A stretch of DNA of 64,000 nt from Candidatus Aenigmatarchaeota archaeon (lineage in GTDB: Archaea > Aenigmatarchaeota > Aenigmatarchaeia > QMZP01 > QMZT01). Shown here one piece after another: positions 3,373-41,430 of the stretch (position 1 is the stretch's first letter; each line of letters opens with the position of its first letter). The stretch lies in NCBI GenBank assembly GCA_963726265.1, contig CAVSBQ010000002.1, positions 861,795 to 925,794 of the forward strand, in the 5' to 3' direction. The position numbers were made by a program, and so were the translations under genes. Below the pieces are notes generated by a model, which saw only the letters and a program-made list of their open reading frames with translations, searched no databases and was not told the DNA's origin.

Positions 3373-3581
3373 AAATCCCAGTTTCAATTCTTAACCATGA
3401 AAGCCGGCATCGAAGGTCCCGAAAAAGGACGTTATCCTCTTTGTCGTGCAGGAGGTCATGCAGAAGCATAGGGAAGTCGAATCGCTGCGTGAGTTCACTG
3501 AGCTCGTCAACATGCGCCTGAAGATGGTCGACTCGAAACTTTCCGTTTCAGGCGCGCGCCTGAGGAGCATATTTATCAAGG

Positions 3582-3785
3582 ATGCACGGCACAAAGCTGG
3601 TGACGGAGACGCGCATGGGCGGCAAGACCGAGAAATGCCCCTCATGTTACTCGAGCCTTAAAAAAATCTACACGAAGAACCTGAAAGGCAGGAAAATCCT
3701 CTACAAGATGATGTGCCAGAGATGCGGTTATTCCGGAGTCAACGGAAAGTTCGCACCGAAAAGATACAAGTTCGTAAAGGCATAA
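3582..3785 (+). CDS. small zinc-ribbon protein (CxxC...CxxC)
   Basis: 67-aa ORF with CPSCYS...CQRCGYSG, a typical 4-Cys zinc ribbon. Frame and start uncertain; the neighbouring ORF 3446-3661 begins with GTG. Confidence 0.3.
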   Translation: MHGTKLVTETRMGGKTEKCPSCYSSLKKIYTKNLKGRKILYKMMCQRCGYSGVNGKFAPKRYKFVKA

Positions 3786-3796
3786 CACGAGGGTTT

Positions 3797-4817
3797 CTAC
3801 CTGTAAATGACCCTGACCTTCTTCAGCTCTTTGATGTTCCTCGCGCCGACCAGGAACATGGCATCCTCCAGCTGCGAGATGACTTTTTCCAGATGCGCTT
3901 TCACGCCCTGCCACGACTCGTTCGCCGGCTTCAGCAGGGGCAGCGCCATGCCAGCGAGGTCTGCGCCCATCGCAATCGCTTTAGCGACTTCGACGCCGTT
4001 GCGTATCCCGCCTGAAGCGATTATAGGGACTTTCACCGAGCGCGCGACGTCTCTCAGCGCCTCCGCCGTTGGGATGCCCCACTCCTCGATGTGGCTGACA
4101 TCTTCTTTCGTTCTATGCCCGTCGACCTTGACCCATGACGTCCCGCCCGCGCCCGCGATGTCTATCGCCTTCACGCCAGCGAGGACCAGGCGCCTCGAGA
4201 GCTCGCCGGAAATCCCGCAGCCCGTTTCCTTCGCTATCACCGGGACCCTGGACTTCCTGCATATCTTCCTGATTTCCTCATAAACGCCCTTCCACGCCTT
4301 GTCGCCTTCCTGCTGCGCGAGCTCCTGCGCGACGTTCAGATGGATCGCAAGGCCGTCCGCCTTTATAGAGTCCACGAGCGAGGCGATTCTTTCCAGCTTC
4401 GTATTGCCTGAGTTGCGCGGCACCGATGTTGCCGAGAAGGAAGATGCTCGGCGCGACGTCGCGGACGAGATAGGTCCTCGTCGTCTTCGCGTCCTCCAGC
4501 ATCGCGCGCTGCGAGCCGACGCCCATGCCTATGCCTAACGCTTCCGCCGCCTTCGCGAGATTCCTGTTTATGCGTTCGCCATTCGCCGTCCCGCCCGTGA
4601 TAGCCTCGATGAAAAGCGGCGCTGAAAATCTCTTGCCGAGAAACACAGTCTTCGTGTTGATTTCATCCCTGCTGATTTCAGGGAGCGCCTTATGCTCGAG
4701 CTCGACGTGCTCGAAGCCGTTCGATTTCGCGAATTCGACGTCCTCCTCCAGGCATATGCGTATGTGGTCGTCCTTCCTCGACTTCGTCACGGCTTTCGCA
4801 GAAGACATGATAATCAT
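3797..4817 (-). CDS. fni: isopentenyl-diphosphate delta-isomerase type 2 (FMN-dependent), interrupted by an apparent -1/+1 frameshift near 4395-4420
   Basis: N-terminal ORF 4278-4817 (…HIRICLEEDVEF…FIEAITGG…VGSQRAMLED…LLGNIGAAQL) and C-terminal ORF 3797-4423 (…KLERIASLVDSIKADGLAIHLN…IAKETGCGIS…DIAGAGGTSW…IASGGIRNG) are contiguous IDI-2 sequence in different frames. The shift lies in the ...cgaagctggaaagaatcg... stretch. Confidence 0.8.
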
Positions 4818-4829
4818 TATCCTATTATT

Positions 4830-5609
4830 CTATTTTCCGTTTATAACGGTTCCCAGGCCCTTTTCACCCAGAAGCGAGCGCCTGAGAAGGCCGGGCTTCA
4901 GGCCGTTTATTATCTCGACCTCGGTTCCCATGGCAAGCGCCATCCTGACTTTCTGCATCATCCCTCCGGTCACGTCGGCGATCCCGTCCGAGGAAGAAAG
5001 CGACTCGGCTATTTCCCTGAAGTTTTTCCTGTCAATCGCCCTTATTTTTTCGCCGAGCGGGCCGAGCACACCATCCGTTTTTCCTGCCATTATTATCCTT
5101 TCCGGCTTCAGCTTCCTCGCGAGGAAGCGCAGTATCTCCTCGGTCGAGATTATGCAGCAGCCCTTCGCCTCGTCGAGGCACGCGTCGCCGTATGGGACGG
5201 GTATCGCGCCTTTCGCGAGCAGGGTCTCGAGCGGCCTGGTATGCCATTCCCTTATGCTGTCGTTCTTCGCGAAGCAGGACGCGGATGGCTGTATCGAAAC
5301 GGCGTTCTCGCCTGCCTCGAGCAGCGATGATACGATAATCCTGTTGAGCTTCGCGGCGTCGTCCTGGACTCTGGCGAAGCCCTCCCAGCTCTTGCTGTTT
5401 ATGACGCCTTTGTGGGTCTGGTATTTGCTGGCCGAGACGTGCGGGAAGCTGCCGCCGCCGTGGCCGACGAGAAGCGCGAACTTCCTTTGCGCTCGCGCTT
5501 CGCGTATCTCCCTGCAAAGGCGTTTTATCACATCGTATCTCGCGGTATACGGCTTCGACTTGTCCGTTATCAGCGAGCCGCCCAGCTTGACGAATATCAG
5601 ATTTTTCAT
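4830..5609 (-). CDS. ipk: isopentenyl phosphate kinase (amino-acid-kinase fold)
   Basis: MKNLIFVKLGGSLITDK...LLVGHGGGSFPH...IISTEEIL...GKTDGVL...DVTGGM, the hallmark IPK pattern; adjacent to fni. Confidence 0.85.
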   Translation of the reverse strand: MKNLIFVKLGGSLITDKSKPYTARYDVIKRLCREIREARAQRKFALLVGHGGGSFPHVSASKYQTHKGVINSKSWEGFARVQDDAAKLNRIIVSSLLEAGENAVSIQPSASCFAKNDSIREWHTRPLETLLAKGAIPVPYGDACLDEAKGCCIISTEEILRFLARKLKPERIIMAGKTDGVLGPLGEKIRAIDRKNFREIAESLSSSDGIADVTGGMMQKVRMALAMGTEVEIINGLKPGLLRRSLLGEKGLGTVINGK

Positions 5610-6012: not shown

Positions 6013-6603
6013 CTACGCCCATCTTTTGTAGATTTTGTTTTCAATCCCGAGCGAGTCCAGCGTCTTGCCTATTATGTGGTTTACCATTTCGTCTATGCCT
6101 TTGGGCTTTGAATACAAGGTGAGGATCGGCGGCAGTATCACCCCGCCAGCCAGCGTGACGCGGCGCATGTTCTCTATGTGTATCAGGCTCAGCGGCGTTT
6201 CCCTCGCCACGAGCACGAGCTTCCTCCGTTCTTTCAGGCACACATCCGCTGCTCGTAACATCAGGTTGTCCGAATATCCCGAAGCGACGCCGGCGAGCGT
6301 CTTCATGCTGCACGGGATTATCACCATGCCTTTCGTTTTGAAGGAGCCGGATGCAATGGCAGCAAACATGTCATTATAGCCATAAACCTTCGTGGCGAGC
6401 TTTTCAACAGCCTTTATGCTATAGTCCGTCTCGTGCTCTATCAGCTTCTTCGCCGTGTCGCTTATCACCAGATGCGTCTCGATGTCCAGTCTCTTTAGCG
6501 TTTCGAGAAAACGTATTCCCAGAAGCGAGCCGGAGCTGCCAGAAATGCCTACGATAACCTTCTCCTTCGCTTCACGCATGTTCAACTGTTCCTTTCTCGG
6601 CAT
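6013..6603 (-). CDS. ubiX: UbiX-family flavin prenyltransferase (prenyl-FMN synthase), expected partner of the UbiD-like decarboxylase
   Basis: KVIVGISGSSGSLLGIRFLETL...IIPCSMKTLAGVASGYSDNLMLRAADVCLKERRKLVLV...ETPLSLIH is strongly UbiX/Pad1-like. Confidence 0.85.
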   Translation of the reverse strand: MPRKEQLNMREAKEKVIVGISGSSGSLLGIRFLETLKRLDIETHLVISDTAKKLIEHETDYSIKAVEKLATKVYGYNDMFAAIASGSFKTKGMVIIPCSMKTLAGVASGYSDNLMLRAADVCLKERRKLVLVARETPLSLIHIENMRRVTLAGGVILPPILTLYSKPKGIDEMVNHIIGKTLDSLGIENKIYKRWA

Positions 6604-6982
6604 CGACTTTCAGCCTGTCGCCCGTCTTTATTTTGTCAATGTCTATCTGGTCGACGCAGGGTATGCCGGCGAGAATGACGCCTGTCGCGACTATCGTCTC
6701 CGTCTCCCTGTTGATTATCGCCTTCGGCGCGACGCCATTCTTCTTCAGGCCGTAAATGACGTACGACCCTACGGTCGAGCCCTTGCCGTTGGGAAAGACG
6801 AGAATCTTGCCCTTCACATTCTGCCCTTCGAGCTCGTGGCCTTTCTCTATCACGATGCCGGTCTTCGCATCGATGCCGCCGTAGAAGCCAAGCGGCGTTT
6901 TCGAGACTATCGCCTCGCCTTCGGCCTTGCCCGGCGATATGCTCCGTCCCTTCATAACTTCTTTGGTCATAACAATCACCAA
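6572..6982 (-). CDS. aconitase X small subunit-like protein (DUF126 family): putative phosphomevalonate dehydratase small subunit
   Basis: 136-aa protein with PLGFYGGIDAKTGIV...GKILVFPNGKGSTVGSYVIYGLKKNGVAPKAII, as in AcnX small subunits; immediately upstream of the large subunit. Confidence 0.7.
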   Translation of the reverse strand: MVIVMTKEVMKGRSISPGKAEGEAIVSKTPLGFYGGIDAKTGIVIEKGHELEGQNVKGKILVFPNGKGSTVGSYVIYGLKKNGVAPKAIINRETETIVATGVILAGIPCVDQIDIDKIKTGDRLKVDAEKGTVEHA

Positions 6983-7029: not shown

Positions 7030-8208
7030 TCATCCCTTTATCAAATCGTCTATGTTTTTGAACACGACGCTCTGCTTGCAGAAGCCCGGAAGATAATTCC
7101 CGGCCTTCCCCGAATCCACGCCAGTCGTCTTGAAGCCCATCTGTTCTATGGGAGAAACGACCATGCACGTGTCCGCGACGATTTTACCGCCCGCCTTCTC
7201 GATTATCGTCGTCAGGCCCATTCTAGTCGCGGCGTCCTTCATCACGCGCGACGTGCAGATCCACAGCGGCTTCTTCAGATGTTTACCTTCAAGCTTTTTG
7301 GATATGCTTATTATTTCCCTGAGCGACGCGTGCGGGCAGCCGATGACTACGAGGTCCGGATCCTTGCCCGTGTTGAGCTTCGCATACGCCTCCTTCAATT
7401 CCTTCTCGCCTACCTCTATGGTCTCGAGACCTTTCGTGTCCATCGCATTCGCCTCAGGCGTCATGCCGTCTATATGATAAAGAGCCACCGCTCCGCTGGC
7501 CGCCATCGCCGCTCCGAATGCTTTAAGGTTATCAGTGTTCGCGTTCTTGATGCCGGTGAAATAAGGGATTTTGCTGCCCGCGATTTTTCCTACATGAGAG
7601 CCGAGCGCGCCGAAATCGGAATTGAACTCGAGCTTAGCGTCGACCTTCACCAGCAGCTGCGGCTTCCTGTTCTCGTCGAGATGCAGGCCATAGTTCGGGG
7701 TGAAGCCGCATATCGCCGCTGCGAGGGCGGATGGCCCGCCTTCGCGGTTCGTCCTCGCGCCTATCACGGAATTCGAGAATGACACGGCAGAGCTTTCAGA
7801 CCACGCGATGTGCTCGCGGAACCTTGGCAAATTACCGGCGAGATAAGGAGTGCACGTCGCTGACATGACTATGCCCATCTTCTCGAAAGCGTCCATTATC
7901 TTCTTCTGCATCCTCGCGAAATCCTCCGGGAAACCCATCTCCTTCCAGCTTTCCATGTCCATGCCGGCCGGGTTCAGGAACGTCAGAATCCTGACCTTCG
8001 CACCTTTGTTCGCGATGTCCTCGAGGAATTCGAGGCCGGGGTCGCCTATGGATTTGTAAGACACGCCCGCGACCTGCGCGGAGCCGATTTCGATCATTTT
8101 ATCGGCCTTGTAAATCTCGCCAAGGCGCACGAGCAGGCGCATTTGTCTCTCGACGACTTCACCATGCGTTCCGTTGAGCATCTTCTCCTGTTCTTTAGTG
8201 AGATACAT
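7030..8208 (-). CDS. aconitase X large subunit-like protein (DUF521 family): putative phosphomevalonate dehydratase large subunit
   Basis: 392 aa, MYLTKEQEKMLNG...GSAQVAGVSYK...ATCTPY...WSESSAVSFSNSVIGARTNREGGPSALAAAI...VIGCPHASL. This is the characteristic AcnX large-subunit signature. Confidence 0.8.
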   Translation of the reverse strand: MYLTKEQEKMLNGTHGEVVERQMRLLVRLGEIYKADKMIEIGSAQVAGVSYKSIGDPGLEFLEDIANKGAKVRILTFLNPAGMDMESWKEMGFPEDFARMQKKIMDAFEKMGIVMSATCTPYLAGNLPRFREHIAWSESSAVSFSNSVIGARTNREGGPSALAAAICGFTPNYGLHLDENRKPQLLVKVDAKLEFNSDFGALGSHVGKIAGSKIPYFTGIKNANTDNLKAFGAAMAASGAVALYHIDGMTPEANAMDTKGLETIEVGEKELKEAYAKLNTGKDPDLVVIGCPHASLREIISISKKLEGKHLKKPLWICTSRVMKDAATRMGLTTIIEKAGGKIVADTCMVVSPIEQMGFKTTGVDSGKAGNYLPGFCKQSVVFKNIDDLIKG

Positions 8209-8218
8209 AATTCACCCC

Positions 8219-8542
8219 TCAGATTTTATTTTCGATTATTTTGCAGTTCTTCTTGAGCATCTCTATTTCTTTTTTACTCGCGTTGTTGACATGAATCCCG
8301 GCTATGCACACGACAGGCGCTTTCGTTTTCCTGCATTTCCTTTCCGCGATGGGCTTGGCGACAAGCCAGTCGTAGTGGCCTTTCCTGCTGACCACTTTCG
8401 CCGGTTTTCCTGGTGCGCACACGACGACGCAGCCTATGTGCGTCCTCTCGCCGCCGCCCAGAAAGAGCACGATGTCGCGCCCCTGCCTCTCTTCTTTCAG
8501 CCACACTTTGTATTTGCCCTTTCCTGCAGTCAGCATGCGCAT
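8219..8542 (-). CDS. conserved-looking hypothetical protein (107 aa) between AcnX large subunit and the UbiD-like gene
   Basis: MRMLTAGKGKYKVWLKEERQGRDIVLFLGGGERTHIGCVVVCAPGKPAK...VVCIAGIHVNNASKKEIEML. No family recognised. Tightly packed in the operon (11 nt after acnX-L start, abutting the ubiD-like stop). Confidence 0.4.
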   Translation of the reverse strand: MRMLTAGKGKYKVWLKEERQGRDIVLFLGGGERTHIGCVVVCAPGKPAKVVSRKGHYDWLVAKPIAERKCRKTKAPVVCIAGIHVNNASKKEIEMLKKNCKIIENKI

Positions 8543-9862
8543 CTACTCCACCAGGTAATCCTCAAAATTTATCTTCATCGGCAGCTCGGGCCTGCTGAAG
8601 TCCTTGCCCTTCGAGACGAGCGGCTTGGTCAGGTCGAAGCCGACCTTCGTCGTCTCGCGCGTGGCCATGTCAGACGAAGGGTCGAGCGACGAGCCCTTCT
8701 CTTTCGTCTTTACTATCATGTTCTTGTCTGCTTGAAAGCGAGTAGCCATGGCCCATTCGATTTCGCTCGGGTTCTCGATGTCTATGTCGCCATCGACGAT
8801 GAAAACGTGCTTCATCGATGCGTGGCCCTTGAACGCGGCTTCGATTGCTTTGCGTCCGTCGTCGTCGTGCTTCTTGTGAATCTTGACCGCGCCGTGCAGC
8901 CACGAGCATCCGCCGGGAGTTATGTAGACGTCGAGGCATTCGCATACCTTGTTGACCTCGCGGAAAATCGTCGGCTCGCGCGGCATGCCCATGAGAATCT
9001 TGTGCTCCAGGTCGCCGGGCAGCAGCGCATGGAAAAGCGCTCCCTTGCGCGCATAGATTTTCTTGACGCGCACGACCGACTGCTTGCGGACGATGTCGAA
9101 AGTCTCGGTCAGGTCGAGGAACGGCCCTTCGTCCGCGAGCTCGCCGGTGAATTCGCATATCATGACTATTTCGCTTTCCGGGACGATGTGCCCGTCCAGT
9201 TCGACGACGTATCGTCTCATGCAGCGCGTTCGCAATCGCCAGCTCGTTCTTGCCCAGCTCCGCGGATATCGCCGCGCCGATAAGGACGGTCGTCGGATTG
9301 CCTATGCAGAAGGCGAATTCCTTCAGCCCGCGTTTCTGGTATTCATTCAGATGGCGTTCCAGGATGCGCAGCACCATTTTGTCCTTGCCGATAATCATTG
9401 CCCGATGATAGGACGCGTTTGTGCCATACTCGTTGTCCTTCGCGACCGCGATGCCGGACGCGATGTAAGGCCCGCCATCCTTTGGGTAGTAGGTCAGAAT
9501 CGGCAGCTTGGAAAGGTCGCATTCAAGTTCCTCATATGCCGCTTTCGCGATCTTTACGGCGGCTCCTTCGGATGGTCTATCGCATGCGTCAGCTTCGCTA
9601 TCAGCTCCTTCTTGTCGATCCCGAGGCCGAGGCAAACCAGGTCGCGCGTCGAGCAGACGTTCGATACGACGGGCATGCTGTGGCCTTTCACGTGCTCGAA
9701 AAGCACGGGCTTGCCATTGAGCTTCTTGACTATGGTCGATATCTCGTATTTGGTGTCGACCGGCTTCTTGATTCTCGTAAGCATACCTTTCTTGTCCAGC
9801 AAATCAACAAATTCCCTCATGTTCATCAAAATCACCTTAACCCTTTCAGGCTTTTCAGCCAT
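8543..9862 (-). CDS. UbiD-family (prenyl-FMN-dependent) decarboxylase, probably anhydromevalonate-phosphate decarboxylase; reading frame broken twice
   Basis: Three overlapping ORFs carry consecutive UbiD segments. 9554-9862: MAEKPERVKVILMNMREFVDLLDKKGML...PVLFEHVKG. N-part of 8670-9635: ...LPILTYYPKDGGPYIASGIAVAKD...FAFCIGNPT. 8543-9235: ...ITPGGCSWLHGAVK...FIVDGDIDIENPSEIEWAMATRFQ. Frame changes near 9560-9640 and 9180-9240. Confidence 0.7.
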
Positions 9863-9994: not shown

Positions 9995-11065
9995 ATGACG
10001 ATAATACTACCTTCCCACGATGAAAGCGTTATGCCGCTTACCTTAGGTCATGTTCTCAGGACTCCTAGCGAAGACTGGCCAAACTACGGCATAAGATGGG
10101 ATACGCCAACGGACTTCCAAAGGCTCGTTGAGTGGAGCAGGGGCGAATACATGAGGGAATGGGCTCAGGGAGATCCGACGCAAATAGAAGTTGTTGCAGA
10201 GGCTTCGAAAAGAGCTTTCAGCGGTAATGACAACAACCAGATTCTGAGAGAAAAGACGGGCGAAGTCGTTGCTAAACATCTTGAGATGCAGACGCAAAGC
10301 GGCAAAAGAGTTTTTTATGTCCTTGATGTCGGCGCGGGCGCCGGAGATTCTTTCATAACATTTTTGGACAAAGTCCCGAAAGACTTCAAAGGTGAAATAA
10401 CTGCTGTGCTTCTGGACCCGGCCGCAAAGCCACTGGGCAAAGCTGCTGAAAGGGTTGCTGGACGCGGAATCAAATACGTGATGCTTGAAGGAAGACAGGA
10501 CCAGATACCGGAGCTGTTTGCAAAATACCTTGATGGTAAGAAAATGTCAGCCGTTTTACAGGTTGGTTCTATACATCATGATTGCAACATCCCATTCCAG
10601 CATTTTTTTAATGTAATCGAAGATGACGGCATATTCGCATCCGGCGACTGGCATCCGCAGACGTGGCAGAATCCTGCTTACGTATTGAAAATGCTGGAAA
10701 CAAACTGGCCGGAACATGAACAGGCAATAGCACATTTCAAGAAAGTTTATGGTGTAAAAAATTCATCTTTACCGCGCGACGCCAAAGACAAGCAGGCGTG
10801 CAAGGATATATTCAGATTCTGGAAAGCTTACCACGATGGCCTGAGAGAAAGGGGAAGAGATCATGGCTCAAACAGCATATGGCCGTTTGAATCGCATCAG
10901 GACTTCAGGAGATATATTGAGAAAATGAAGGCCGCTGGATTTTCGACTGACGTTGATGGTTATCTTGGCGAGCTTCTGCATGAAACAGGAACTGCAAACC
11001 CTCAAAGTTTCTACAAAAACAGTACTGTTATAATGGGAACATACGGACACAGGTTATCGGTTTGA
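9995..11065 (+). CDS. class-I SAM-dependent methyltransferase-like protein
   Basis: VLDVGAGAGDSF motif-I-like Gly-rich loop followed by acidic residue patterns (VLLDPA..). 356 aa. Substrate unknown. Confidence 0.5.
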   Translation: MTIILPSHDESVMPLTLGHVLRTPSEDWPNYGIRWDTPTDFQRLVEWSRGEYMREWAQGDPTQIEVVAEASKRAFSGNDNNQILREKTGEVVAKHLEMQTQSGKRVFYVLDVGAGAGDSFITFLDKVPKDFKGEITAVLLDPAAKPLGKAAERVAGRGIKYVMLEGRQDQIPELFAKYLDGKKMSAVLQVGSIHHDCNIPFQHFFNVIEDDGIFASGDWHPQTWQNPAYVLKMLETNWPEHEQAIAHFKKVYGVKNSSLPRDAKDKQACKDIFRFWKAYHDGLRERGRDHGSNSIWPFESHQDFRRYIEKMKAAGFSTDVDGYLGELLHETGTANPQSFYKNSTVIMGTYGHRLSV

Positions 11066-11070
11066 AATAA

Positions 11071-12003
11071 TCAGACGCCGATTTCCGTCTTAAGCGTCCT
11101 GTAGCCTTTCGCTTCTATCGCCTTCGCGACCTTATCCTGCGTGGCCTTGCCGGGCGTAAGGATGATAACGTAGCCACCGCGTCCTGTGCCTGTTATTTTC
11201 GCTCCAGCAGCGCCGTTCGCCCTGGCAACGTTTATGATTTCCTCTGCCTGCCTGCATGAAAGGTTCATTTCCCTGAGCAGGTGGTGGTTCTCGTCCATGA
11301 GCTTGCCGAGTTTTTGTATGTCACCGCTCTCAAGGACGCCTCTCGCTTCCTTCACGATTTTCACGTAATCGCTGAATAGCTTCTCGTATTTCTTCGGGTC
11401 CGCTTCCTTCGCCTTTTTCACGTCCTCGACGACGAGCTTCGTCTCCTGGGAGATGCCAGTGTTGCCGAGCACGATTTCGATGGAATGTCTCGCCTTTATC
11501 AGCTCCATCCTGTTCTCGCCGCCTTTGAAATTCTTCTCGAACCACAGCAGGCCGCCGAAGGTCGCGCAGGTATTATCGATTCCGGAAGGCGTGCCTGCCG
11601 AACCTTTCTCGCCTTCGTAGGATATCCTGTTCACCTGCTCGTCGTCCAGGCCGAGTTTGAAATATTCCGAGAACGCGCGGGCGATGGACGTCGCCATAGC
11701 CGCGCTCGCCCCTATGCCGCTCGTGCAGAAAAGGTTGCCAGAAAGCGTGATTTTCATCGGCGTTTTAACAGGGTCGATTTTCATGAAGTCGAAAATGAGC
11801 TTCATGGAGCGCTCCATCTCGTCCTTCTTCATCATCTTGTAGCCGTCTGTCGCCGGCCGCTTGTCCACGAGCTCGAATTTCTTCGCCTTCTCGATATTCG
11901 CGATGGTTTTATCGCCTATCGCCGAAGCTATCGCTGGCAGGCCATACACCACGAAATGCTCTCCGAACAAAATGATTTTTCCGAAACCATAACCTTCTGC
12001 CAT
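11071..12003 (-). CDS. mvk: mevalonate kinase (GHMP kinase family)
   Basis: GKIILFGEHFVVYG...TSGIGASAAMATSIARAF...GKITGTGRGG, canonical MVK motifs. Confidence 0.85.
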   Translation of the reverse strand: MAEGYGFGKIILFGEHFVVYGLPAIASAIGDKTIANIEKAKKFELVDKRPATDGYKMMKKDEMERSMKLIFDFMKIDPVKTPMKITLSGNLFCTSGIGASAAMATSIARAFSEYFKLGLDDEQVNRISYEGEKGSAGTPSGIDNTCATFGGLLWFEKNFKGGENRMELIKARHSIEIVLGNTGISQETKLVVEDVKKAKEADPKKYEKLFSDYVKIVKEARGVLESGDIQKLGKLMDENHHLLREMNLSCRQAEEIINVARANGAAGAKITGTGRGGYVIILTPGKATQDKVAKAIEAKGYRTLKTEIGV

Positions 12004-15601: not shown

Positions 15602-15675
15602 TGGGGCAAGTGGGATTTGAACCCACGACCTATCGGTCTTCAGCCGAGCGCTCTCCCGGGCTGAGCTATTGCCCC
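15602..15675 (-). tRNA. tRNA-Phe (anticodon GAA)
   Basis: Reverse complement GGGGCAATAGCTCAGCCCGGGAGAGCGCTCGGCTGAAGACCGATAGGTCGTGGGTTCAAATCCCACTTGCCCCA folds as a cloverleaf (7-bp acceptor, GTTCAAATC T-loop), with anticodon loop CTGAAGA. Confidence 0.8.
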
Positions 15676-15991: not shown

Positions 15992-16122
15992 GTTAAGTTA
16001 TTGGGCTAAAGCTTGAAAAACGTTTCAGAAGCAGCAGGCTGACGCAGGCTTGCCTGCGCTTAAATCGATTGAAACAGGCAGGGCCTGTTTCTTTCGCTCG
16101 TCACGTCCCGGGCAGGGAACGA

Positions 16123-16194
16123 CGTCCCGAGCAGGGTTCGAACCTGCGACCTATCGGTTAACAGCCGATCGCTCTACCACTGAGCTATCGGGAC
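16123..16194 (-). tRNA. tRNA-Asn (anticodon GTT)
   Basis: Reverse complement GTCCCGATAGCTCAGTGGTAGAGCGATCGGCTGTTAACCGATAGGTCGCAGGTTCGAACCCTGCTCGGGACG. Cloverleaf with anticodon loop CTGTTAA. Confidence 0.8.
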
Positions 16195-16257
16195 AATACT
16201 AAAGTTTAACCAGCGCCAGAAATAAAAAGGTTTTTCATTCCCTTTGCAAAATCCTTT

Positions 16258-38138: not shown

Positions 38139-39303
38139 ATGGATGTTGAAAAAGTTGAAAAAGCGGTGGACGCGCAGAAGGCCGGGATGATAAAGCTTCT
38201 TTCTGACCTGCTGGCAAGGAACACGGCCAACCCGCCCGGCAACGAATTCTTCGCGGCAGAGGTCGTCAAGGAATTCTTTGAAAGGGAAAAAATAGCATAC
38301 AGGATTTTCGAAAAGCAGAAGGGCCGTTCGAACATAATCGGTTATATAGGCAAAGGGAAGCCGCGCCTGATTATCGCCTGCCACATGGACACGGTCCCGG
38401 CTGGCGACGGATGGAAATCGAATCCTTTCCGTGCGCGAGTTGAGGGCGACAGGATTTATGGACGAGGCGCGGTCGACAACAAAGGCCCGCTGGCTGGCAT
38501 GCTCATCGCAGGCAAAATCCTCAAGAGGCTCGAGCCATCGCTTCGCTGCCAGGTCATGCTCGCCTGCGTCGCTGACGAGGAGATGGGCTCGGAATTCGGG
38601 ATGCGCTACCTGCTTGACAGCGGCCTCGACGCGGAATATGCGATTGTGCCGGACATAGAGCACGAGCTGAAGAAAATCGACGTCGCTGAGAAAGGGTCTG
38701 CTTGTTCCTGAAGGTCACTTCCCTTGGTCGCCAGGCGCACGGCTCGACTCCAGAAGCCGGGATAAACGCCGTCTGGAACATGCTCGAGTTCCTTGCGCTG
38801 CTCAAACGCTACAGGATGCGTTTTAAACGGCATCGTCTGCTTTCGCCGCCCACCATAAACCTCGGGCGTGATAAAAGGCGGGGAAGCGACGAACATGGTG
38901 CCTGCCGCATGCGAGGCGAAAATCGACATACGCTACCTGCCTTCTCAGAAATCTTCAGATATCATAAATGATGTAAAGAAGATGCTCGCGGTCGAGAAGG
39001 AAAAACAGGAAGGCGAGATTCAGGCTTGAAGTGATTGACCATCAGAAGCCCGTCGCCGTCGAAGGCGGCGCGCTGGTGAGGCTGATCAGAAAGCACGTAA
39101 AAGAGGTCACGGGAAACCATGCCGAGCTCATCGGCATCTCGGGGACGACGCTGGTCAAGCCGCTGGCCGAGAAAGGGATCGTCGCAGTGGGCTTCTCGCC
39201 CGGCAAAGGCCTTGCGCATACGGCGAACGAGTTCATCTCCATCGCCGAGCTCATGGCCTTCGCGAAGATACTGTGCCTGGTCTGCCTCGACCTTTCCGCT
39301 TAG
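38139..39303 (+). CDS. M20-family metallopeptidase (ArgE/DapE/CPG2-like), fragmented into three frames
   Basis: 38139-38711: …IIACHMDTVPAGDGW…GRGAVDNKGPLAG…ACVADEEMGSEFG. 38702-38971: …LKVTSLGRQAHGSTPEAGINAV. 39031-39303: …GISGTTLVK…VAVGFSPGKGLAHTANEFISI. Frame changes near 38700 and 38960-39030. Confidence 0.65.
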
Positions 39304-40105: not shown

Positions 40106-41430
40106 TTGCGTGATTGCATGCCGGAAAAATTCGAGCTGATGAATGCGAAGGGAGCGCGGGACTTTTTGCCAGAGGAAGCCATAGCCAGGCAGGAGATAAC
40201 CGGCATGCTGAAAGCGATATTCGAGAAATACGGCTATTCGCCGCTTGAAACGCCGGCGATTGAACGGAAGGACGTGCTGTCCGCGAAATTCGCAGGCGGC
40301 GCTGAAATAATGAAGGAGATGTTCAAGGTCGAGGACCAGGGCGGGCGTGAACTGGCGTTACGCTACGACCTGACGGTCCCGCTGGCCAAGGTCGTGGGCA
40401 TGAACCCCAACCTTACGAAGCCGTTCAAACGCTATCAAATACAGCCGGTATGGCGCGATGGCCCGATAAAGCTCGGCAGATATCGAGAGTTCCTCCAGTG
40501 CGACGCGGACGTCGTCGGGACGAAGTCCATGCTCGCCGACGCCGAGATACTGGCAATCGCTTCCGAATTCTTCACGAAGCTCGGGCTGAAATTCGTGATA
40601 AGGGTGAACTCGCGCAAGCTCATGAACGGCATGCTCGATTACGCAGGCATCCATGAGAACAAGATGGATGCGATTCTCGCGATAGACAAGCTCGAGAAGT
40701 TCGGCGCAGCCGCTGTGAAGAAAGAGATGGAAGAGAAGGGCTTCGCTGCGAAAGCGGTGGAAAGCCGTGCTGAAGATGCTGGAGCTGAAAGGCGGGAACG
40801 CCGAGCTGCTCGGAAAGGCCGGGAAGCTGATCAAGAGCGAGGAAGGGAAGGAAGGCGTAAAAGAGCTGCAGGGAGCTTCTGGACTATTGCGAGGCCATGG
40901 GCGTTGAGATAAAAATCGACGTCTCGCTGGCGCGCGGGCTGGAATATTACACCGGGCCGGTTTACGAGGTTTACCTGAAGGATTCGAAGGTCACGTCGTC
41001 CGTCGCCGGCGGCGGGCGCTACGACAAGATGATAGGCATGTTCATAGGACGCGGCGAATACCCGGCGACTGGGATTTCATTCGGCATAGAGCCGCTTTTC
41101 GAGGCGCTGAATGAGCAGAAGGAAGCGAGGCCGAAGACCGTTACGCAGGCCCTTGTGATTCCCATAGGCACGCTGGACGACTCGATAAAGCTCGCGAAGA
41201 AGCTGAGGGCGCTGGGAATAAAAACGGAAATCGACCTGATGGGACGCGGCATCTCGTCGAACCTGGACTACGCGAACTCGCTGGGCATTCCTTACGTCGT
41301 GTTCCTGGGGAAGAAAGAGCTCGCGGAAAAGAAGGTCAAGCTGCGCGACATGAAATCGGGCAAGGAAAAAATGGCGACTGCCGAAGAAGCAGCTTCTGTG
41401 ATAACGTCTGGGCCGTCTGGGCGCATCTAA
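40106..41430 (+). CDS. hisS: histidine--tRNA ligase, with two single-base frame changes (about 40772 and about 40872)
   Basis: N-part …KGARDFLPEE…LRYDLTVPLAKVV…KRYQIQPVWRDGP…REFLQCDADVVG. C-part (40897-41430) …ARGLEYYTGPVYE…GGGRYD… anticodon-binding domain. Both insertions sit in short homopolymers (agcc, caggg). Confidence 0.8.

Follow-up and report, generated by a model that had tools for sequence, protein, structure and literature searches.

Gene content of the locus

[quoted passage not shown] Mevalonate kinase (MVK) is located upstream of UbiD (Table 1). The MVK, AcnX, AcnX_swivel, UbiD domain, UbiX, and IPK assignments all exceed their Pfam or NCBIfam cut-offs, and the enzyme set is that of the archaeal mevalonate pathway as summarized in PMC12547664. 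The UbiD-family protein is presumed to be the anhydromevalonate phosphate decarboxylase (AMPD); NCBIfam lacks a model specific to AMPD, and the nearest solved structure (6H6V/6H6X) bears no more than a generic UbiD-family name in its deposition. The AcnX large subunit is 92% identical to its orthologue in locus L005.

A 356-aa open reading frame (ORF) on the opposite strand is inserted between UbiD and MVK. It contains the string VLDVGAGAGDS and has no Pfam or NCBIfam match, and its site holds no gene in L005 and an unrelated 190-aa ORF without hits in L001. The only RNA genes identified by Rfam and ARAGORN in the 64-kb window are two tRNAs.

Table 1. Positions of genes and sequence features in the window
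Feature	Position	Strand	Evidence or remark
Mevalonate kinase (MVK)	11071..12003	-	TIGR00549 226 bits, cut-off 163
356-aa ORF	9995..11065	+
UbiD-family decarboxylase, presumed AMPD	8543..9862	-	UbiD_N, UbiD, UbiD_C
GGTGGAG, Shine-Dalgarno-like motif	8546..8552	-	Within UbiD 3' end; sequence reading
LpdD-family (PF21758) small protein, maximal ORF	8219..8542	-	107 aa
Small gene, likely CDS	8219..8536	-	105 aa + stop; second Met start as in homologues
AcnX large subunit (PMDh-L)	7030..8208	-	Pfam AcnX 543 bits
AcnX swivel/small subunit (PMDh-S)	6572..6982	-	AcnX_swivel_put 121 bits; NCBIfam NF003046 186 bits
UbiX-family flavin prenyltransferase (prFMNH2 synthase)	6013..6603	-	Pfam Flavoprotein; TIGR00421 254 bits, cut-off 109
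Isopentenyl phosphate kinase (IPK)	4830..5609	-	NF040647 IPPK_Arch 199.6 bits, cut-off 120
Type-2 IPP isomerase-like FMN enzyme (IDI2)	3797..4817	-	One frameshift near 4390-4405
Conserved 128-aa gene	3401..3782	+	One frameshift near 3575
tRNA-Phe(GAA)	15602..15675	-
tRNA-Asn(GTT)	16121..16195	-
Peptidase M20 ORF	38139..38711	+	Profile positions 2-92 of 206 only
Histidyl-tRNA synthetase (HisRS), first ORF	40106..40912	+	Pfam profile positions 1-196
HisRS, second ORF	40897..41430	+	Profile positions 248-308 and anticodon domain

Several genes in the window are interrupted. Two frameshifts (~9555-9560 and ~9210-9213) that compensate each other spread the UbiD gene over three frames, and the first of them creates an in-frame TAA. 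Its orthologues are intact at 426-444 aa (426 aa in L005, L007, and L008). Frameshifts also occur in the IDI2-like gene and in a conserved 128-aa gene, and HisRS is divided between two ORFs that cover successive parts of its profile. Because HisRS, an essential single-copy gene, has been struck as well, the frameshifts are probably assembly indel errors rather than signs of pathway decay or pseudogenization. A truncated peptidase M20 ORF also lies in the window.

The small gene is intact and under purifying selection

The initial annotation described an unassigned 107-aa gene between the dehydratase large subunit and the UbiD-like decarboxylase, and the ORF, its strand, and its neighbors are all confirmed. 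Read from the sequence, the frame runs intact from ATG to stop over 107 codons, and its translation includes HIGCVVVCAPGK and VVCIAGIH. Nearly all homologues are 105 aa long and begin at the second methionine (MLTAGKGK...), so the likely coding sequence of the window gene starts there too. The GGTGGAG motif lies 9 nt upstream of this second ATG (8534-8536) and may act as a Shine-Dalgarno-like signal for the small gene. The spacing of about 10 nt to each neighbor that had been given holds on one side only: 10 nt separate the small ORF from the AcnX large-subunit gene on the same strand, while the UbiD stop codon (TAG, 8543-8545) directly abuts the first ATG of the small ORF (8540-8542), which leaves a spacing of 0 nt (TAGATG).

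Close homologues numbered 34 in a word-indexed search, with identities of 58-93%, and the named ones belong to Candidatus Aenigmatarchaeota metagenome-assembled genomes (MAGs), where the proteins are labeled 'hypothetical protein' or, in some JGI records, 'gallate decarboxylase subunit D'. At a broader scale, a profile search of 1.84 billion representatives (E ≤ 1e-3) placed 1136 clusters at 50% identity in the PF21758-type family. Compared pairwise with its orthologues, the window gene has a dN/dS of 0.05-0.15, and the full set of pairs spans 0.02-0.17. Combined with a Pfam match at E = 4e-24, the homologues, clusters, and dN/dS values establish that the ORF is a genuine gene under purifying selection and no chance reading frame.

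Assignment to the LpdD family

The only Pfam match of the small protein is to PF21758 (85 bits against a gathering cut-off of 27), spanning positions 2-106 of the 115 in the profile. An older copy of Pfam names this family 'PAC_bac', and the precomputed Pfam annotation uses LpdD_chaperone. The protein is covered by no NCBIfam model. Among PDB sequences, phmmer matched only Lactiplantibacillus plantarum LpdD (8p4w/8pzh/8po5; E ~ 1e-3, residues 11-94). Structure prediction, which had been proposed as a check in the initial annotation, produced an AlphaFold2 (AF2) monomer model built from 23 orthologues with a pLDDT of 93.9 and a pTM of 0.86. In a Foldseek search of the PDB the six best matches of this model are all LpdD chains, on which it superposes with a TM-score of 0.84-0.86 and an rmsd of 2.0-2.5 Å, followed by the proteasome chaperones PAC3 and Pba3/4 at a TM-score of only 0.50-0.57. 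The predicted fold agrees with that of LpdD, a Pba3/4-like beta-sheet with two helices. By sequence and predicted structure, the small protein belongs to the LpdD family, and no unrelated housekeeping family matches it.

In LpdD, H35, H61, and D63 coordinate Mn2+ at the surface, H35 and H61 being strictly conserved (PMC10865409). In the phmmer alignment, H35, H56, and D58 of the window protein (107-aa numbering) align with these three residues, and H84 corresponds to LpdD H89, the histidine of the GxH motif. A family-wide alignment of 26 sequences, comprising archaeal orthologues, bacterial representatives, and the LpdD fragment, has invariant columns at the glycines and histidine of GG..H.G and at the G.H motif, while the second histidine, the aspartate, and one asparagine are at least 90% conserved. 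The two histidines are spaced 21 apart in the archaeal proteins, as against 26 for LpdD and 30-31 for the majority of bacterial members. Judged from these alignments, the archaeal proteins are a compact, short-loop form of the family, and with a shorter ligand loop their binding properties could differ from those of LpdD.

The several cysteines outside standard Zn-ribbon spacings that were remarked upon initially are indeed present in the strings described, but they form no metal-binding motif and are not conserved. No cysteine is conserved across the 26-sequence alignment: C38 is replaced by serine in most orthologues, and C79 and C100 are retained in no more than the closest subfamily, giving way to alanine or serine in the Thermoplasmatota orthologues. 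The cysteines of the window protein are therefore incidental, and a Zn-ribbon or other cysteine-based metal-binding function was rejected on this ground and because PF21758 is the sole Pfam match.

Genomic context in archaea and metagenomes

Context was compared in two independent samples. The first, selected by the small protein, consisted of six contigs reached through exact-protein look-ups together with 35 GTDB species genomes, the latter drawn from the Aenigmatarchaeota, the Thermoplasmatota (Thermoplasmata), MAGs assigned to 'Methanobacteriota' or 'Euryarchaeota', and one bacterium. Wherever the upstream DNA of an archaeal locus is readable (39 of 39; 6 + 33), a UbiD-family gene lies immediately 5' of the small gene, on the same strand, and the two genes often overlap by 4-17 nt (17 nt in the Thermoplasmatota). 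In the archaeal loci of this sample MVK precedes UbiD and the AcnX large and small subunits follow the small gene, which places the homologues in the pathway cluster known from the window. A TruD gene on the opposite strand comes between the small gene and AcnX in the Thermoplasmatota loci while the overlap with UbiD is kept, and the small gene is thus tied to UbiD and not to the dehydratase. An HD-domain phosphohydrolase gene (196-199 aa) occupies the interval between the LpdD-like gene and the AcnX large subunit, within the same operon, in the Aenigmatarchaeota-type relatives L008 (8321-8911), L004 (8315-8914), and L011.

The second sample was selected by UbiD and held 80 metagenome loci, 69 of them with enough downstream DNA. 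The small gene is present in eight of the 69, in each case directly after UbiD, and absent from the other 61, in most of which the AcnX large subunit directly follows UbiD. No PF21758-like ORF was detected elsewhere within about 6 kb in these 61 clusters. Three look-ups of the closest 424-aa-type UbiDs likewise led to MVK-UbiD-AcnX clusters without the small gene. One locus of separate interest, L044 (JGI Ga0366820_1004287), holds a UbiD-AcnX-L/S-UbiX-IPK cluster without an LpdD-like gene, beside genes of the shikimate pathway and for a sigma-54 activator, and an NCBI record assigns the protein to a Deltaproteobacteria MAG; this may be a bacterial carrier of an archaeal-type lower mevalonate pathway.

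In a rough neighbor-joining (NJ) tree, the LpdD-linked UbiDs are polyphyletic and fall into a large Thermoplasmatota-type clade, an Aenigmatarchaeota clade of 444-aa enzymes, the window lineage, and several singletons. The UbiD of the window lineage is nested among LpdD-less 424-aa enzymes in the same rough tree. The proposition that one AMPD subtype needs LpdD is unsupported, as the LpdD-linked AMPDs form no single clade there. An AMPD alignment covering seven independent LpdD-linked groups contained no column that cleanly separates LpdD-linked from LpdD-less enzymes; the best columns, at about 0.84 versus about 0.18, did not hold in one or two of the groups.

Two UbiD types occur within the Aenigmatarchaeota loci, 444 aa in L001-L004 and 426 aa in L005, L007, L008, and the window. 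Between these two sets of loci the neighboring genes are 80-93% identical and the LpdD-like gene ~70%, but UbiD is only ~47% identical. This pattern of identities suggests that the decarboxylase gene was replaced within an otherwise conserved cluster and that the LpdD-like gene was retained.

The association of PF21758 with UbiD is not exclusive. A Desulfovirgula member (L041, 7974-8363) has no UbiD within 8 kb and is instead surrounded by SelB, a PCC-domain protein, a Methyltransf_28 gene, and FeoB, while the 298-aa protein P0155 is a fusion of a class II aldolase with PF21758. A search among long family members for a UbiX-LpdD or UbiD-LpdD Rosetta-stone fusion found none, the other long members carrying only PF21758. 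Membership in the family alone is therefore weaker evidence than the strict synteny observed here.

Discussion

The LpdD-like protein is quite probably a chaperone that binds reduced prenyl-FMN (prFMNH2) and loads or protects this cofactor for AMPD. The initial annotation had raised, as one of two options, a protein serving the prenyl-FMN decarboxylation step as chaperone or maturation factor, and the LpdD-like sequence, the predicted structure, and the linkage to UbiD all favor it. Under this explanation the small gene is co-transcribed with the decarboxylase gene and probably translationally coupled to it, since reading frames that abut or overlap suggest coupled synthesis. UbiX, encoded three genes downstream in the same operon, would make reduced prenyl-FMN; the LpdD-like protein would capture the oxygen-labile prFMNH2 at the conserved loop surface with the His-His-Asp site and pass it to apo-AMPD, with a higher yield of loaded, matured holo-enzyme as the outcome. 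That the protein binds prFMNH2, that AMPD is its client, and that transfer runs in this direction are all inferred from homology to LpdD and from gene context. It should be noted that the client gene in the window is itself frameshifted, which counts against this explanation.

The main rival to a transient chaperone has the protein serve permanently as a stoichiometric, non-catalytic subunit of AMPD, making the decarboxylase heteromeric. The frames that abut UbiD in the window (TAGATG) or overlap it by 17 nt in the Thermoplasmatota would suit coupled, equimolar synthesis, and the JGI label 'gallate decarboxylase subunit D' on some orthologues points the same way. Such a subunit is nonetheless decidedly unlikely, as LpdD was characterized as a free prFMNH2-binding dimer that acts on heterologous UbiDs (E. 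coli UbiD and A. niger Fdc), and both the polyphyly of the linked UbiDs and the lack of a cleanly separating AMPD column argue against a co-evolved interface. It is very improbable that the protein is instead a third component of the AcnX-type dehydratase, as the initial annotation had also suggested, or a maturation factor for that enzyme (e.g., for a [4Fe-4S] cluster). The 10-nt distance to the AcnX large subunit in the window and the several cysteines would fit such a role, but TruD in the Thermoplasmatota and the HD-domain gene in L008, L004, and L011 stand between the small gene and AcnX, the cysteines are not conserved, and sequence and fold are those of LpdD. Least credible of all is a proteasome-assembly chaperone of the PAC3 or Pba3/4 type unrelated to the pathway, which could draw on the older 'PAC_bac' name and the distant Foldseek matches, but LpdD is far closer (TM-score 0.86), Pfam has since renamed the family, no proteasome genes lie nearby, no sequence match exists, and the linkage to UbiD is strict.

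For the prFMNH2-chaperone explanation, the distribution of the gene bears on how much the pathway depends on it. As only eight of the 69 UbiD-selected clusters carry the gene and the Methanosarcina mazei pathway works without it, the small gene is a lineage-specific accessory to the archaeal mevalonate pathway. A stronger proposal would make the LpdD-like protein an obligatory fifth component of the lower pathway in the Aenigmatarchaeota and the large Thermoplasmatota-type clade, in which AMPD would fail to take up prenyl-FMN or to mature it when the protein is missing, one such setting being strict anoxia, with no O2 to drive maturation. This proposal is unlikely; if it were true, lipid-precursor synthesis in these archaea would depend on a dedicated cofactor chaperone, and the protein would be a part that improves engineered archaeal-type mevalonate (MVA) pathways.

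Both the family and its function are already known, and the pairing of LpdD with AMPD reveals no new kind of system, though the pairing itself appears to be undescribed in the searchable literature. A search of the openly accessible literature found no paper combining 'LpdD' and 'mevalonate', and the LpdD and PhdC papers make no mention of archaea or mevalonate (PMC10865409, PMC13040415). Publications on the archaeal pathway (including PMC12547664) name MVK, PMDh, AMPD, prFMN synthase, and IPK and no further component. LpdD is so far the only characterized prFMNH2-binding chaperone, and here a distinct compact subfamily is tied to AMPD in several uncultured archaeal lineages. This would provide a second, physiologically essential class of client for testing how LpdD proteins work and a candidate part for the ATP-saving archaeal MVA pathway that is being engineered in E. 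coli and other hosts. It also corrects the annotation of archaeal MAG genes labeled 'hypothetical protein' or 'gallate decarboxylase subunit D'.

Comparison with known systems

The eukaryotic PAC3/PAC4 and Pba3/Pba4 chaperones share with the window protein a distantly similar alpha/beta sandwich, but have no sequence similarity to it and neither the metal triad nor, on the side of the window protein, a proteasome context in common. The prFMN maturases PhdC and YclD are closer in role, being accessory to UbiD/UbiX systems and increasing UbiD activation, but they belong to an unrelated, flavin-reductase-like fold and family and oxidize the prFMN radical catalytically (PMC13040415); the window protein has no sequence match to either.

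In M. mazei the AMPD (MM_1526) and PMDh (MM_1525/1524) genes are consecutive, and the UbiX-type prFMN synthase is encoded by MM_1871 (PMC12547664). The enzyme set and the order AMPD, PMDh-L, PMDh-S are the same as in the window, but no gene lies between AMPD and PMDh-L, where the window lineage and the Thermoplasmatota-type MAGs add the LpdD-like gene. The M. mazei pathway is functional in E. coli with only AMPD and a UbiX-type prFMN synthase (PMC12547664). As E. coli has no LpdD homologue (PMC10865409), the chaperone is not a general requirement of AMPD.

The closest counterpart is L. plantarum LpdD itself, the prFMNH2-binding chaperone of the gallate decarboxylase LpdC (Gahloth et al. 2024, PMC10865409), for which crystal structures are available (PDB 8PO5, 8PZH, 8PZO, and 8P4W). 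The protein is dimeric and takes up prFMN in the reduced state alone, and it raises LpdC activity when UbiX is limiting. Once loaded with prFMNH2 it activates apo-AnFdc, and also E. coli apo-UbiD when a further cell component is present. Metal binding is not strictly required, and the authors of that study report that LpdD is rarely found alongside UbiD (PMC10865409). The window protein resembles LpdD in its PF21758 membership, predicted fold, H-H-D triad, GxH histidine, and location among genes of a UbiD/UbiX system. It differs in its low identity (about 22%), its length (105 aa versus about 136 aa, the C-terminal extension being absent), its shorter ligand loop (21 versus 26 from His to His), and the position of its gene directly after UbiD. 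The clients differ as well: that of LpdD is a bacterial aromatic-acid decarboxylase, whereas the presumed client in the window is an aliphatic-substrate UbiD of an essential archaeal isoprenoid pathway.
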